Made by a program: the position numbers and the translations under genes. Under the pieces are notes generated by a model. It was not told where the DNA came from, searched no databases, and saw only the letters and a list, made by a program, of their open reading frames with translations. This document shows positions 26,710 to 47,535 of a stretch of 64,000 nt of DNA, one piece after another (the stretch's first letter is position 1; each line of letters opens with the position of its first letter). Origin of the DNA: an uncultured Actinomycetota bacterium (GTDB lineage: Bacteria; Actinomycetota; Actinomycetes; Actinomycetales; Micrococcaceae); assembly GCA_963741265.1 (NCBI GenBank), contig CAVUHG010000010.1:3132-67131 (forward strand). Reading direction: 5' to 3'.

Positions 26710-26886
26710 CCGTTTAACGGCCTCTCGAGGTGGCGCCGCGGCGTCTGTGAACAAGCGATAGGGAAATGCCCAGGCCGCCAGCGCGACGGGGGTTTGGGAA
26801 ACCATCAACAATGACCTGCGCATTCGGGTTGCTGGATAATATTGCTATTTCATGTCAAACGGCCCCGCTCCGTGTCAGCATGTAGC

Positions 26887-43467: not shown

Positions 43468-43577
43468 TGTTGACTTAGAATGCTAAGGGCGCCGTATGGC
43501 GCCGTGCCCGCAAGCCGCCGTCGCACATCAGCGTGCGTCCGCGCCGGGCACATGAAGTTTGTTCTCAAAGGAGTTCC

Positions 43578-44663
43578 GTGTCTTCAAATCCGATTCGTGT
43601 TGCAATCGTCGGCGTAGGTAACTGTGCCGCTTCGCTGGTCCAGGGTGTCCAGTACTACCAGGATGCCGACCCCCAGGCCACGATCCCGGGTCTGATGCAC
43701 GTGGAGTTCGGCAAGTACCACGTCAACGATGTGCAGTTCGTGGCCGCCTTCGACGTCGACGGCAAGAAGGTCGGCATCGACCTCGCCGACGCCATCGGGG
43801 CCAGCGAGAACAACACCATCAAGATCGCCGATGTCCCGCCGACCGGCGTCACCGTCCAGCGCGGCCCGACCCTCGACGGTCTCGGCAAGTACTACCTCGA
43901 GACCATCGAGCAGTCCTCCGAGGAGCCGGTCGACGTCGTCCAGGTGCTCAAGGACGCCAAGGTCGACGTTATGGTCTGCTACCTGCCGGTCGGATCCCAG
44001 GAAGCCGCCGAGTTCTACGCCCAGGCCGCAATCGACGCCGGCGTGGGCTTCGTCAACGCCCTGCCGGTCTTCATCGCGGGCACCAAGGCATGGGCGGACA
44101 AGTTCACTGCCGCCGGCGTGCCGATCGTGGGCGATGACATCAAGAGCCAGATCGGTGCCACCATCACACACCGCGTGATGGCCAAACTCTTCGAAGACCG
44201 CGGCGTCACGCTGGACCGCACATACCAGCTGAACGTCGGCGGCAACATGGACTTCAAGAACATGCTCGAGCGCGACCGCCTCGAGTCCAAGAAGATCTCC
44301 AAGACCCAGGCCGTCACCTCCAACGTCGAAGCCGAGCTCGCCGCCAAGGACGTCCACATCGGCCCGTCGGACTACGTGCAGTGGCTCGACGACCGCAAAT
44401 GGGCCTTCGTGCGCCTCGAGGGCCGCAACTTCGGTGACGCCCCGGTCTCGCTGGAATACAAGCTCGAGGTCTGGGACTCACCCAACTCCGCCGGCGTGAT
44501 CATCGACGCCATCCGCGCCGCCAAGATCGGCCTGGACCGCGGCATCGGCGGCCCGCTGCTCTCGGCGTCGAGCTACTTCATGAAGTCCCCGCCGGAGCAG
44601 TTCAACGACGACCTCGCCCGCGAAAAGGTCGAGGCCTTCATCCGCGGAGACCTGGAGCGCTAA
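43578..44663 (+). CDS. ino1: myo-Inositol-1-phosphate synthase
   Basis: [33 protein letters not shown]; GTG after AAGGAG. Confidence 0.94.
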
Positions 44664-44679
44664 ACGCCTTCTCCTTCCC

Positions 44680-44746
44680 CCGGTTGCCCTATCACTTACG
44701 GTCCCCAAACCTCTGGTTTGACCGCTGTAAGTGATAGGGCAACCGG
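44680..44746. repeat. 67-bp palindromic element A (REP-like)
   Basis: 20-bp perfect IR ccggttgccctatcacttac / gtaagtgatagggcaaccgg. Confidence 0.85.
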
Positions 44747-44749
44747 CGT

Positions 44750-45667
44750 TTAACGGGGGCGCAGGGCGGACCGGACCCGTTGGGCCGCGCCGCGGAAGTC
44801 GTCGGCCAGATCGTCGGCGTTGAACTTGAAGTACCGCCAGCCGGCCGCGTTGAACGTTTCGTCGCGGCGGTTGTCCCGGGACTGCTGCTCGCGCGTCAGG
44901 TGATGGCCGCCGTCGTACTGGATGGCCACTCTTTGCCTCCGGTAGCCGAGGTCCGCGGCGGGGGAGCAGGGGTCGTCCGGCACAATCCGAAGCTGCAGCT
45001 CCGGCTCCGGCAGCCCGGCCGCAGCCAGCGCCAGGCGCAGGAAGGTCTCCGGAGCCGAGTCGGCGCCGGGCCGGATCAGGGCCGCGGCCCCGCGGGCCTT
45101 CACGATGCCCTTGAGCTTCGGGTGCCGCGACAGCATCGCCGTCAGCTGGGGAAGGGTTGCCCACGGGTCCGAGCGGCCCTCCAGCCCGGGCCGGGGCTGC
45201 CGGACCAGCTGGTCGCCCACGGCCACGAGATCGTCAAGCGGCAGGATGCGGGCAAGATCCAGCCAGGTCCGGGCGGGTGTTGAAATCCGGATTCCATCCC
45301 AGACCATCACCTCGTCGTCGAACGCCAGCACGGTATGCCCGACGACGCCCTCCCGCCGGACCGGCGGCAGGGCCTTGCGCTTACTCAGATGCAGTTCGCG
45401 GCAGCCGCTGTACCACGACGGGAGCCACAGCCCCAGCAGCACCGCGGCCGTGAGGTGCGAGATCCAGGCGCCCGGCGTCGCGGCGGACAGGGCACGGGCC
45501 AGGCCGCGGACTTCAAACTCCCAGCCCGCGGGAACGTGGATCAGCCGGCCCGCCGAGGTGAGGTCGGAGGAACGGAGCCGGGCACCGCCCAGGCTCGCGG
45601 CCCGGGCCTCATAGACCGTGAACGGGGCCGTGGACAGGTGGGCCGGCAGCGGCGCAGGTGGGTGCAT
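44750..45667 (-). CDS. AbiEi-like N-terminus plus DUF559/Vsr-like PD-(D/E)XK nuclease-fold protein
   Basis: SHLTAA..LGL, TPARTWLDL, DSAPETFLRL, ADLGY...AIQYDGGHH, D..RD....AAGW; CAGAAT-7nt-ATG leaderless start. Confidence 0.75.
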   Translation of the reverse strand: MHPPAPLPAHLSTAPFTVYEARAASLGGARLRSSDLTSAGRLIHVPAGWEFEVRGLARALSAATPGAWISHLTAAVLLGLWLPSWYSGCRELHLSKRKALPPVRREGVVGHTVLAFDDEVMVWDGIRISTPARTWLDLARILPLDDLVAVGDQLVRQPRPGLEGRSDPWATLPQLTAMLSRHPKLKGIVKARGAAALIRPGADSAPETFLRLALAAAGLPEPELQLRIVPDDPCSPAADLGYRRQRVAIQYDGGHHLTREQQSRDNRRDETFNAAGWRYFKFNADDLADDFRGAAQRVRSALRPR

Positions 45668-45720
45668 GCGGACCATTCTGGTCCGAACCCCGTGTCCCCG
45701 CTCCGGCTATCCACAGGCCC

Positions 45721-45787
45721 CCGGTTGCGCTATCACTTGGAGCGGTCAAAAGACCGGAATGGCAACCCAAAGTGATAGCGCAACGGG
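45721..45787. repeat. 67-bp palindromic element B (inverted homolog of A)
   Basis: 15-bp perfect IR gttgcgctatcactt / aagtgatagcgcaac; aligns without gaps to the reverse complement of A. Confidence 0.85.
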
Positions 45788-45790
45788 GGT

Positions 45791-47476
45791 CTAGAAGAGG
45801 CCGACCGGGTTGCCGGCGGCGTCGACGTCCATCCGCATGGCCGCCGGGACCTTCGGCAGGCCCGGCATCGTCATCACCGCGCCGGTCAGCGCCACAATGA
45901 AGCCGGCCCCGGTCTTGGGAATGAGGTCGCGCACATGGACGGTGAAACCCTTCGGGGCCCCCAGCCGGCTGGCGTCGTCGCTGAAGGAATACTGGGTCTT
46001 CGCCATGCAGACGGGGAACCCCGACCAGCCGTTCTTCTCGATCTCCGCGAGCCGCTTGAGCGCAGGCACCGAGAAGTCCACGCCGTCGGCCCCGTACACC
46101 TCCTGCACGATGGTCCGGATCTTGTCCTCCACCGACATTTCCAGCGGGTAGAGGTGCCGGAACGTGTGCGGCGCGTCGATGGCCGCGGCAACTTTCGCCG
46201 CGAGCTCGTCACCGCCGTCACCGCCGCCGCCGCGGCCCCAGACATCCGCCACGGCCGCCTGGACGCCTTCCGCGGCGCACCACTCCAGCAGCCAGTCGAG
46301 CTCCTCCTGGGTGTCGGTGGTGAACTTGTTGATCGCCACCACGGGCGTGATGCCGAACTTCTCGACGTTGCGGACGTGCCGCTGCAGGTTCGCGACGCCG
46401 GCGGCCAGCGCCTCGACATTGGGTTCCTTGAGCTGGTCCTTCGCGATCCCGCCGTGCATCTTGAGCGCCCGGATGGTGGCGACGACGACGACGGCGGACG
46501 GGGCGACGTCGGCCACCCTCGCCTTGATGTCCATGTACTTTTCGGCGCCCAGGTCCGCGCCGAAGCCGGCCTCGGTGACGACGATGTCGGCGAGGCTGCG
46601 GGCGGTCTGCGTGGCGATCAGGGAGTTGCAGCCGTGGGCGATGTTGGCGAACGGGCCGCCGTGGACCAGGGCGGGCGTGCCGGCGATGGTCTGCACGAGG
46701 TTGGGTTTGACGGCGTCCTTAAGCAGCATGGTCAGGGCGCCCTGGACCCCGAGGTCGGCCACGGTGACGGGCTGGCGGTCGTAGGTGTAGCCGAACGTGA
46801 TCCGGCCGAGCCGTTCGCGGAGGTCGGCGAGGCCCGTCGCGAGGCAGAAGACCGCCATGATCTCGGACGCCACGGTGATGTCGAAGCCGTCCTGCCGCGG
46901 GGTGCCCTGCGCCGGCCCGCCGAGGCCGATCACGACTTCGCGGAGGGAACGGTCGTTCATGTCCAGCACACGCTTGAACGTCATCCTGCGCGGGTCGATG
47001 TTGAGCTCGTTGCCCTGGAAGATGTGGTTGTCCACGAGGGCCATCAGGGCGTTGTTGGCCGAGGTGATGGCGTGGAAATCGCCGGTGAAGTGCAGGTTGA
47101 TCTCGTCCATCGGCAGCACCTGGGAGTAGCCGCCGCCGGTGGCGCCGCCCTTCATGCCCAGGATGGGTCCGAGGGAGGGCTCGCGCAGCGCGATCATCAC
47201 CTTGTGGCCCGCGCGGGCCAGGGAGTCCGCCAGTCCCACGGTGGTTGTCGACTTGCCCTCGCCGGCCGGGGTGGGCGACATTGCGGAGACCAGCACCACC
47301 TTGCCGGGCGCGCGGGCGGGGGCGTGCAGCTTCGCGGGATCGATCTTCGCTTTGTAGCGCCCGTAGAATTCCAGGGCGTCGGCGTTGATTCCGGCCGCGG
47401 CGGCGATCTCCTCGATCGGCTGCATCGTGGCCCGCTGGGCGATCTCCAGATCACTCAGAATCGTAGTTTCAGACAT
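45791..47476 (-). CDS. fhs: Formate--tetrahydrofolate ligase
   Basis: [39 protein letters not shown]. Confidence 0.96.
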
Positions 47477-47535
47477 CATTGTCCTTCGGCTCGTGGCGGC
47501 GGTGGGTGTGCCGGCCAGTGGTGTCAGGCCCGGGG

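Follow-up and report, generated by a model that had tools for sequence, protein, structure and literature searches.

A predicted nuclease gene in Arthrobacter-group bacteria is framed by palindromes whose kind changes with the kind of gene

We analysed a stretch of 64,000 nucleotides, hereafter the window, from an Arthrobacter-group soil bacterium and found that it holds a predicted nuclease gene between two 67-base palindromes. Palindrome and nuclease gene change kind together from one related species to the next, a pattern that points to an enzyme-plus-repeat partnership. We tentatively favour, with a little less than even confidence in the reading and its proposed mechanism taken whole, the idea that an AbiEi-like/EDxHD nuclease is framed by repeats that it recognises, in a partnership like that of REP elements and RAYT proteins but built on an unrelated enzyme. 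The cassette protein most likely recognises its own framing repeat. The locus would accordingly be one copy of a widespread actinobacterial single-gene module. We found no published description of a module that joins a nuclease gene to palindromes in this way.

The cassette gene, a 308-aa ORF at 44,750–45,676 on the reverse strand, is free-standing between the stop codons of ino1 and fhs and does not lie inside an intron or intein. Its left neighbour, ino1 (myo-inositol-1-phosphate synthase; 43,533–44,663, forward strand; Pfam PF01658, E 1.9e-36), is convergent with it, and the last 364 bp of ino1 are 86–98% identical in 80/80 genomes of the genus. Its right neighbour is fhs (formate-tetrahydrofolate ligase; 45,791–47,479, reverse strand; PF01268, E 1.8e-258). 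Palindrome A (44,680–44,746, no strand assigned), a REP-like element of the CTATCACTT family with a variable interior, lies 16 bp past the ino1 stop (44,663) and 3 bp from the stop codon of the cassette ORF; its outer 15-nt boxes, GTTGCCCTATCACTT, are at 44,683–44,697 and, as the reverse complement, at 44,729–44,743. Palindrome B (45,721–45,787, no strand assigned; boxes at 45,724–45,738 and 45,770–45,784) belongs to the same family, is inverted relative to A judging by its interior, and lies 44 bp upstream of the cassette ORF start and 3 bp short of the fhs stop (45,791). The initial annotation had described a DUF559-like gene bracketed by two 67-bp palindromes, and every feature that it named was found in place. 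The ino1–fhs gap held no further ORF of gene-like composition. No AbiEii (DUF1814) partner gene was present beside the cassette gene, whose neighbours are ino1 and fhs, and no recombinase gene was found nearby. An Rfam search of 44,000–46,500 at E up to 1 returned no match and no intron, and an NCBIfam search returned no match.

The real start of the gene is probably the second ATG, at 45,667, which would give a protein of 305 aa; many annotated orthologues have this length. Reading the sequence by eye, we noted a putative -10-like hexamer, CAGAAT (45,675–45,680, reverse strand), and a consensus promoter scan found nothing at the gene. When upstream regions were compared, CA(C/G)AATG was conserved 6–8 nt before the start codon in relatives of type II (see below), and this motif hints at an mRNA that is leaderless or nearly so. 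The interval from palindrome B to the putative promoter contains CTGTGGATAG (45,707–45,716, reverse strand), a DnaA-box-like motif of the TTATCCACA type. TGTGGATAA recurs at the equivalent upstream position in all type II alleles, in the two paralogues C4 and C11a and in 6/6 genes at other loci. RNA-library contigs of relatives break at palindrome A and cover parts of the cassette gene, which is not proof of transcription.

The pairing of palindromes A and B is not chance. The 14-nt box TTGCSCTATCACTT has four exact occurrences in the window, where shuffles expect 0.23 at up to 2 mismatches, and the folding energies, compared with shuffles, are -49.9 kcal/mol for A (z -12) and -45.6 kcal/mol for B (z -8). 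As the initial annotation had it, the reverse complement of A aligns with B without gaps (69 nt, 78% complementarity), and the two have the asymmetric motif AGCGGTCAAA in common. The same annotation saw a compensatory change in the ccct/aggg pair of A, which is cgct/agcg in B. The difference is real. At half-site position 25, a subfamily marker (C, G or T), the arms agree in 77% of 106 copies, where 37% would be expected, and combinations that do not match are frequent. This agreement shows that the arms change in concert and does not prove that an RNA stem is under selection. When copies were oriented by their upstream gene, G:U and A:C mismatches numbered 90 versus 72, which gives no clear RNA-level signal. 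The reading of A and B as terminal inverted repeats carries a caveat as well. The two are inverted, but each is oriented alike relative to the convergent housekeeping gene that it follows, and this accounts for the arrangement equally well. Both hairpins are without a T run or U tract, and a scan for terminators of the U-tract type counted 0 sites. In type I genomes (19 loci measured), the boxes of the A orthologue are 93.5% conserved at a dS of about 1.4, and a B orthologue is present in every type I genome but G068. Among the joints listed for Logan contigs, none supports excision, inversion or strand switch. A metagenome contig of low depth that joins 45,784 to 44,729 with 18 foreign letters was taken as an assembly artefact through the repeats.

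The palindromes had been likened to REP elements, and they do belong to a dispersed REP/BIME-like family, which is confined to Arthrobacter/Pseudarthrobacter. About 18 copies of the CTATCACTT family are present in the bacterium's own genome (55% complete), and 54/80 genomes of the genus hold 2–20 copies each. Each half-site of about 30 nt combines the 15-nt box GTTGCSCTATCACTT with a G that never varies, six positions inward, and with a centre that does vary; half-sites meet head to head in REP/BIME-like elements. In the scattered copies, the boxes keep near 2 bits of information, including at positions that terminators do not need. In named genomes, a stop codon precedes 88/109 copies (81%) by no more than 60 bp. 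The same 3' spacer holds different repeat families in different genomes, a hint that the preference for the site does not depend on a single protein. Copies also turn over, with 2/4 dispersed sites private to the bacterium's own lineage and one copy decayed in the gene-less genome G070. The RAYT/HUH transposase (PF01797) is absent from the own genome and from 78/80 relatives, and its presence in the other two is unrelated to repeat count. We rejected a classical REPtron on this absence from 79/81 genomes, and the absence supports the proposal of a non-HUH enzyme. By contrast with these points, the suggested enrichment of CTATCACTT repeats next to DUF559 paralogues did not materialise: 0/16 dispersed copies in the own genome showed it, and elsewhere only 1 of about 75 single-copy loci had a DUF559 paralogue within 8 kb.

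The cassette protein is predicted to join an AbiEi-like DNA-binding part (about residues 1–200) to an EDxHD/Vsr-like nuclease (about residues 200–308). Pfam, PADLOC, an AF2 model and Foldseek agree on such a putative DNA-binding nuclease, in line with the earlier assignment. Pfam DUF559 (PF04480) matched residues 244–304 with 25.4 bits against a gathering cut-off of 20.6, PADLOC returned an AbiEi match (E 8e-7), and the AF2 model has a pLDDT of 96.3. Foldseek matched the N-terminal two-domain part to 6y8q (E 2.4e-4) and 1zel, a resemblance to AbiEi and Rv2827c, and the C-terminal part to 3r3p (TMt 0.69–0.73) and 1cw0, a resemblance to I-Bth0305I and Vsr. E210, D242, H259 and D268 are invariant across 69 relatives. 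An E-to-Q change at residue 253, considered as inactivating, was dropped, since Q is found in 33/69 relatives and E in 30/69. The gene has a dN/dS of 0.12 at a dS of about 1.4, indicating purifying selection; with the boxes 93.5% identical, selection acts on both gene and repeat. Pseudogenes or truncations of the gene occur in L091, L093, G003, G090 and G022. The DUF559/AbiEi-like family as a whole comprises 7,343 clusters at 50% identity.

Paralogues and sister subtypes proved to be framed by palindrome families of their own, as would be expected from the initial annotation. One repeat core, GC.C..TCAC, frames three sister subtypes (54–60% identical to one another) in a different variant each: GCGCTATCACTT in type I (19 loci measured); ACGCTCYCTCAC units in type II, forward upstream and reverse complement downstream, at three different loci; and GCGGGGTCACTT in the third subtype. 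A distant type I clade has CAG in place of CAC in all four half-sites at the locus; its locus copies read CAGTT, against CACTT in the listed dispersed copies of G014 and G006. In the own genome, a separate palindrome family with about 8 dispersed copies supplies the pair that frames the paralogue C4:17279, and the paralogue C11:301768 is framed by a palindrome-containing duplicated segment whose copies are direct, not inverted. In five other genomes, 9/16 paralogues are framed by pairs of their own.

Each genome has one gene per subtype, and the gene has the same orientation at all type I loci; among type II loci, only that of G065 is opposite. The type I gene lies at ino1–fhs in every one of the 23 type I genomes but G019, which has it on a separate small contig. 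The type I unit is therefore not visibly hopping, and the idea of a mobile element found no support on this count. In G019, an IS end lies in the centre of both palindromes that surround the gene copy. The single palindrome left between ino1 and fhs in that genome was considered as an ancestral empty site and rejected; with about 18 bp from the 3' end of the gene still attached, it is a derived deletion. In G090, a MerR-like gene and a membrane-protein gene are framed by a duplicated palindrome.

We scored 80 genomes for gene type and repeat counts and found that repeat type and protein type vary together across the genus, as the initial annotation had supposed. The type I gene is present in 23 genomes, the type II gene in 43 and both in 0. 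At least five CTATCACTT copies were found in 21/23 type I genomes versus 7/57 others (Fisher 2e-11, uncorrected for phylogeny), and the median number of GACGCTC units was 26 in type II genomes versus 4 in type I. All five GACGCTC-rich genomes with an 'empty site' carry a type II gene elsewhere, framed by GACGCTC units, and five GACGCTC-poor genomes are without a type II gene. The gene-less ino1–fhs junctions sought in relatives exist, and these spacers hold forward and reverse units, as repeat pairs or arrays, with no gene between them; that of G043 has a solo palindrome. In a tree of a 6-kb rpoB region, type I and type II genomes are mixed throughout, with seven or more changes on supported branches and the sister pairs G068/G004, G019/G070 and G077/G096. 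The gene-repeat association is not just clade membership, and the ino1–fhs cassette and its repeats have been exchanged as a unit at least seven times among close species. Since gene and framing repeats are linked within 1.1 kb, such joint exchange would occur even without a functional tie.

The abundance of a repeat variant follows its gene, although not strictly, because orphan repeats exist. G004, G096, G051, G018 and G089 keep 5–14 CTATCACTT copies without a type I gene; in these five genomes (99–100% complete) the best homologue is 54–60% identical and 0 paralogues are framed by the CTATCACTT family. Similarly, 22–48 GACGCTC units remain in G080, G072, G052 and G071 without a type II gene. 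An independent-pairs test on the rpoB tree, of low power with 6 pairs, gave 3.2 in the expected direction, 0.1 in the opposite direction and 2.8 ties (p about 0.25). The sisters G068, which has the gene, and G004, which is gene-less, have about 10–11 copies in common; when copies common with outgroups were discounted, about 4 copies were private to G068 and about 2 to G004, a roughly even split that decides neither way.

We infer that the protein binds and cuts its repeats and that it may have a role in spreading or maintaining them. In the partnership that we favour, the winged-helix part would bind the conserved boxes, probably as a dimer spanning the 67-bp palindrome (compare I-Bth0305I), and the nuclease would nick or cut in or near the palindrome. 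Repair would then prevent the arms, and likewise the scattered copies, from diverging and would occasionally seed copies in other 3' spacers. Long hairpins would be tolerated at 0–60 bp after stop codons, where the repeats mainly lie, and may also stop or stabilise transcripts there; the two framing copies could double as operator and insulator for the gene. A further proposal, which we consider unlikely, makes the protein a proof-reader and propagator of palindromes: a dimer of the Vsr-like nuclease, bound through its AbiEi-like domains to the outer boxes, would nick an extruded or mismatched centre, and repair would copy arm onto arm and at times transfer a palindrome to a further spacer. 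Such a mechanism would account for the symmetric ('compensatory') changes, for boxes that hardly vary at a dS of about 1.4 and for the way in which families supplant each other in a given 3' spacer. It would also account for three interchangeable specificities that behave like alleles, exclude one another and, once a cassette has been swapped, re-write the terminator-like palindromes of the genome.

The same observations could be read with the gene as a parasite, a view that we regard as possible but doubtful. Here a free-standing homing-type endonuclease cassette, whose DNA-binding part recognises one family of pre-existing 3'-end palindromes, would cut these and be copied or recombined into them, so that it would always lie within or between copies of its target; the dispersed palindromes would spread and persist by other means. 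The nuclease domain's closest solved relative, 3r3p, is indeed a homing endonuclease; the type II gene occupies at least three loci, each inside an array of its own units, and empty spacers with paired units exist; and the cassette has been replaced at least seven times at one site among close species. Common orphan repeat families, the pseudogenes and truncations, and the other cargo framed by the duplicated palindrome of G090 fit as well. However, each subtype has a single gene per genome and the type I locus is fixed (G019 excepted) despite 6–18 potential targets in each genome, and a dN/dS of 0.12 is unlike that of a decaying selfish gene. The presumed target is moreover intact on both sides of the gene, so that a filled allele would not be immune, and the tracking of gene presence by repeat abundance is unexpected unless the parasite needs targets to survive. 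A purely local service of the repeats seems improbable to us. It would have B and A act as operator and as insulator or terminator: the AbiEi-like protein would repress its own promoter, shielded from fhs and ino1 read-through, while the nuclease does another job (defence or repair) and the dispersed copies are REP-like terminators that merely share ancestry. AbiEi-family proteins do autoregulate through inverted repeats (PMC7319586); the promoter region has B immediately upstream of it, and A comes straight after the stop codon. The hairpins are very stable, 81% of copies lie within 60 bp after stop codons, and the breaks of relatives' RNA-library contigs at A give a weak hint. Nevertheless, B, at about 60–125 nt before the start codon, stays clear of the -10 region, U tract and canonical terminator call are both absent, and the mismatches (90 G:U versus 72 A:C) have no bias to the transcribed strand. 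Local service also leaves unexplained why genome-wide copy number follows the gene subtype and why scattered copies keep near-2-bit boxes, beyond the needs of a terminator.

That A is simply the ino1 terminator and B the fhs terminator, both from a common REP-like family with the DUF559 gene between them by chance, we judge very unlikely. Each copy does lie 3–16 bp past a stop codon and is oriented alike relative to the preceding gene, and gene-less ino1–fhs spacers also hold repeat pairs and arrays. Such coincidence is contradicted, however, by the paralogues and sister subtypes at other loci, each framed by its own family, and the repeat variant tracks the gene subtype. By our own estimate, about 18 copies in roughly 2,500 spacers would give about 0.1 doubly framed genes per genome. 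We give next to no credence to a programmed inversion switch, in which crossing over at the inverted palindromes would turn the gene from the transcription direction of ino1 to that of fhs and back. Predicted inversion targets are enriched in DUF559 proteins (odds ratio 14.3; PMC9881135), A and B are mutually inverted, and the G065 homologue has the opposite orientation. Yet gene orientation is uniform at all type I and all other type II loci, no recombinase gene is nearby, C11:301768 is framed by direct copies, and the public data searched, which are contigs only, hold no strand-switch joint.

If DUF559/AbiEi-like proteins are cognate partners of palindromes, a large orphan family would gain a role, and a second, independently evolved enzyme-plus-repeat symbiosis would be open to experiment. 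The partnership that we favour bears on the upkeep of abundant intergenic palindromes in high-GC Gram-positive bacteria. Arthrobacter/Pseudarthrobacter would serve as a natural experiment: the genus has three specificities, types I and II exclude each other, sister species have swapped cassettes repeatedly, and some repeat families are orphans whereas others are served by a gene. Such proteins would further be candidate long-site (about 60 bp) sequence-specific nickases.

Among known systems, AbiEi antitoxins and Rv2827c (type IV toxin-antitoxin AbiE) resemble the cassette protein in their N-terminal two-domain fold, and AbiEi proteins are reported to bind inverted repeats near their own promoter (PMC7319586). 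AbiE pairs the antitoxin with an AbiEii/DUF1814 nucleotidyltransferase, whereas here that partner is replaced by a C-terminal nuclease on the same protein. I-Bth0305I is a homodimer with a footprint of about 60 bp that cuts the centre of a pseudopalindrome (PMC3239194). It and other EDxHD homing endonucleases are like the cassette protein in having a Vsr-like catalytic domain with conserved E, D, H and D and in the order of an N-terminal DNA-binding region and a C-terminal nuclease. They differ in that they reside in group I introns or inteins, whereas the gene described here is free-standing in the chromosome, and the DNA-binding part, NUMOD in I-Bth0305I, is AbiEi-like here. The presumed target here is intact on both sides of the gene, and homing is a candidate activity.

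The enterobacterial BIMEs and REP elements are 3'-end hairpins, mosaics of palindromic units that alternate or stand in tandem in 3' spacers, as do the repeats described here; in both, families replace one another at the same spacer, and the insertion sequences that target REP elements have a counterpart in the IS end within the G019 palindromes. The repeats described here differ in that they have other sequences, occur in another phylum and are linked to a protein-coding gene. In Proteobacteria, REP-type repeats depend on RAYT transposases, and it is with these REP/REPIN-RAYT systems ('REPtrons') that we compare the cassette. REPtrons differ from it in using a Y1 HUH transposase, where we predict an AbiEi-like winged-helix part and an EDxHD/Vsr-like nuclease, and in the GTAG or CGTC head that is absent from the repeat here. 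The elements here are 60–70 bp long, with two 15-nt boxes at fixed spacing, and also form tandem half-site arrays; their copy numbers are low (about 5–90), and the activity of their partner is a prediction. Both systems, by contrast, have dispersed extragenic palindromes, with one cognate gene per family and genome and several families with separate cognate genes per genome. In both, orphan repeats remain after gene loss, the gene is inherited largely vertically, and a pair of copies of its own repeat frames it.

The initial annotation described two palindromes framing a nuclease-like gene, and this arrangement matches the sequence. On the ino1 side, palindrome A (44680-44746) is 16 bp beyond the stop codon of that gene and 3 bp from the stop codon of the ORF between the palindromes, which is on the minus strand and encodes 308 aa (44750-45676). 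On the fhs side, palindrome B (45721-45787) is 44 bp upstream of the ORF start, with the fhs stop codon 3 bp away. ino1, fhs and the C-terminal DUF559 domain were all confirmed by Pfam searches. Single-stranded folds of A and B are very stable, at -46 to -50 kcal/mol with z from -8 to -12; a U tract is absent from both, no canonical terminator is called at either, and an Rfam search of the locus gave no match. The second ATG, at 45667, is the probable start, giving 305 aa, the length of many annotated orthologues; the first ATG overlaps a conserved -10-like hexamer, CAGAAT. A DnaA-box-like motif, TGTGGATAA (45707-45716; CTGTGGATAG on the minus strand), has the upstream repeat on one side and the promoter region on the other, and is found at the same place in nearly every family member examined, including loci L290-L295 and the paralogues at C4:17279 and C11:301768 of the window's own genome, G000. 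A lone half-site-like match elsewhere in the window (TTTCCCTATCGCTT, 26753-26766, minus strand, 2 mismatches, no partner arm) is probably due to chance. In a sediment metagenome run (X2), one contig of low depth connects 45784, the end of B, to the 3' arm of A (44729) across 18 unrelated letters; neither a circle nor a tandem junction can be distinguished here from mis-assembly through the repeats.

The palindromes belong to a dispersed family. Using nhmmer, we found ~18 copies of the CTATCACTT family in G000 (2.67 Mb, 68% GC, 55% complete). Counts among 80 genus genomes range from 0 to 20. In a collection-wide scan the family was found in genomes titled Arthrobacter or Pseudarthrobacter, the remaining hits being low-GC chance matches, and it was not detected in 16 genomes from other families of the same order. 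Most copies follow a stop codon by no more than 60 bp (14 of 18 in G000 and 88 of 109 in named genomes; median 12 bp), 19 of these in spacers between convergent genes. A symmetrised profile revealed a half-site of ~30 nt with a box, G-T-T-G-C-S-C-T-A-T-C-A-C-T-T, that carries nearly 2 bits at each position, and with an invariant G 12 positions, and an A 6 positions, from the axis. Because this box is conserved and the centre is variable, with only 43-73% complementarity between the arms, a pair of inverted half-sites separated by a fixed distance describes the element better than a perfect stem does. At position 25 (S) the arms agree in 77% of copies versus 37% expected, indicating that they change in concert. 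G:U and A:C mismatches (90 versus 72) did not reveal a transcribed-strand bias, and no RAYT/Y1 transposase was found in 79 of 81 genomes searched. G000 has at least two further palindrome families, with sites at C2:102090, C4:17155, C4:18207, C4:38835, C11:320890 and C11:414651, and at C1:155663 and C11:216449. CCCAACTRRCTCGCAGCAGGGGCC palindromes number ~8, two of them framing the C4:17279 paralogue; CGATTGCTCCGYAAC palindromes number ~4 and have no paralogue close by in the assembled half of the genome.

The AlphaFold2 model of the cassette protein is confident (pLDDT 96.3). Structure comparison showed similarity of residues 1 to ~200 to the AbiEi antitoxin and Rv2827c, and of residues ~200-308 to the homing endonuclease I-Bth0305I, in its catalytic domain, and to Vsr; AbiEi matches from PADLOC were weak. 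S207, E210, R214, D242, G256, H259 and D268 are invariant in 69 diverse relatives, and the E, D, H and D among them are those of the EDxHD motif. With 7,343 clusters at 50% identity the family is very large, and type I orthologues, those of the window's subtype, are under purifying selection, with a dN/dS of 0.12 at dS ~1.4 that is alike across all three protein parts.

Comparison of the ino1-fhs spacer across the genus revealed several alternative states. Type I spacers are ~1.12 kb and hold the gene, at 69-93% identity, with a CTATCACTT palindrome on each side. Type II spacers (1.2-1.5 kb) lack this palindrome and hold a homologue 52-60% identical. A related repeat, GACGCTCYCKCAC plus ~20 nt, takes its place in tandem units that are in forward orientation upstream of the gene and reverse-complemented downstream of it; in longer spacers a type II-like gene is accompanied by extra DNA. 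Empty junctions, which the initial annotation suggested looking for, exist in relatives: 13 spacers of 77-416 bp have plain hairpins, or forward and reverse GACGCTC units without a gene. In the G043 spacer a palindrome of yet another family, the third (GCAACGCGGGGTCACTT), stands alone. The exchanged unit opens with the first repeat past the ino1 stop codon and closes with the last repeat ahead of the fhs stop codon. All type I genomes carry their gene at this locus except G019, whose spacer has a solo CTATCACTT palindrome and ~18 bp of the gene 3' end, which marks it as a derived deletion rather than an original empty site. The G019 gene lies on its own small contig (L028, G019:C18, 1252 bp), where the same ~100-bp sequence, in opposite orientations at 1-100 and 1153-1252, splits both framing palindromes at their centres; it looks like an IS end entering the palindrome loop, as would a REP-targeting IS.

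Framing by repeats extends to other loci and follows protein subtype. In G000, the paralogue at C4:17279 is framed by another palindrome family (~8 dispersed copies) and that at C11:301768 by a duplicated segment containing a palindrome. Of 16 paralogues in five other genomes, 9 lie between repeat pairs of their own and none between CTATCACTT copies; GGGGTCACTT palindromes frame a third subtype. The type II gene is present in all five GACGCTC-rich genomes with an empty site, at two other loci, where GACGCTC units frame it; five GACGCTC-poor type I genomes lack it. Among the 80 genomes, type I (at least 69% identity) occurs in 23, type II in 43 and neither in 14, and contaminated G021 aside, no genome has both. 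The two behave like mutually exclusive alleles. Type II genes can occupy three different loci, yet never alongside type I. At least five CTATCACTT copies are present in 21 of 23 type I genomes versus 7 of 57 others, and the median number of GACGCTC units is 26 in type II versus 4 in type I genomes, statistics that ignore kinship. On a tree of the rpoB region (6 kb, 30 genomes) the cassette types are fully interleaved, with at least seven changes on supported branches, so the association does not simply set one clade against another; an independent-pairs test gave p ~0.25 from 6 pairs only. (The rpoB match in incomplete G000, C7:58992-60240, falls into two open frames of 984 and 246 aa, which suggests a frameshift or assembly error.) Across type I loci the boxes are 93.5% identical with synonymous sites near saturation, and in a distant type I clade CAC has become CAG in all four half-sites at the locus. 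The framing is systematic and subtype-specific, and coincidence is therefore very unlikely.

Other observations argue against a strict partnership. Five genomes (99-100% complete) without any type I gene hold 5-14 orphan CTATCACTT copies, several type I genomes lack a type II gene yet have 22-48 GACGCTC units, and the sister genomes G068 and G004 have most palindrome copies in common. Orthologous 3' spacers hold different families by genome, or hybrids such as CGATCTATCACTC, indicating that the spacers themselves are hot spots. At the site matching G000:C7:46588 (L254), G088 (C13) has a hybrid unit, AACGATCTATCACTC and its reverse complement, between ordinary GACGCTCTCTCAC units, which connects CTATCAC and CTCTCAC as variant families within a single superfamily. 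In G090 (L061, C1:507780-510146, spacer 8-1316), two CTATCACTT palindromes enclose a MerR-like regulator gene and a gene for a small membrane protein, the first palindrome being followed by ~15 bp of the nuclease gene 3' end and the second by a truncated nuclease gene (residues 186-306); a duplicated palindrome can thus frame other cargo. Framing repeats would also travel with the gene in a cassette exchange through physical linkage alone.

A literature search found no published link between DUF559/AbiEi-like genes and palindromic repeats. The nearest items are a survey of PD-(D/E)XK proteins that places Vsr, DUF559 and a homing endonuclease together (PMC3424549), a REP survey that only counts the palindromes of one Arthrobacter genome (PMC12306157), and a DUF559 row in a table of inversion targets (PMC9881135). 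That row prompted the idea of an inversion switch, which has little support. That the palindromes serve only as a local operator or insulator we regard as quite improbable. The EDxHD family was defined on I-Bth0305I, a homodimer with a ~60 bp footprint that cuts the centre of a pseudopalindrome (PMC3239194), and the cassette could likewise be a homing-type gene living in its target repeats, a reading we consider rather unlikely. AbiEi proteins bind inverted repeats (PMC7319586), and that the AbiEi-like part recognises the boxes is, in our view, the most economical common factor. The reading we tentatively prefer, giving it somewhat less than an even chance, is that the protein keeps or spreads its repeats, much as RAYT, a Y1 HUH transposase, partners REP repeats in Proteobacteria.
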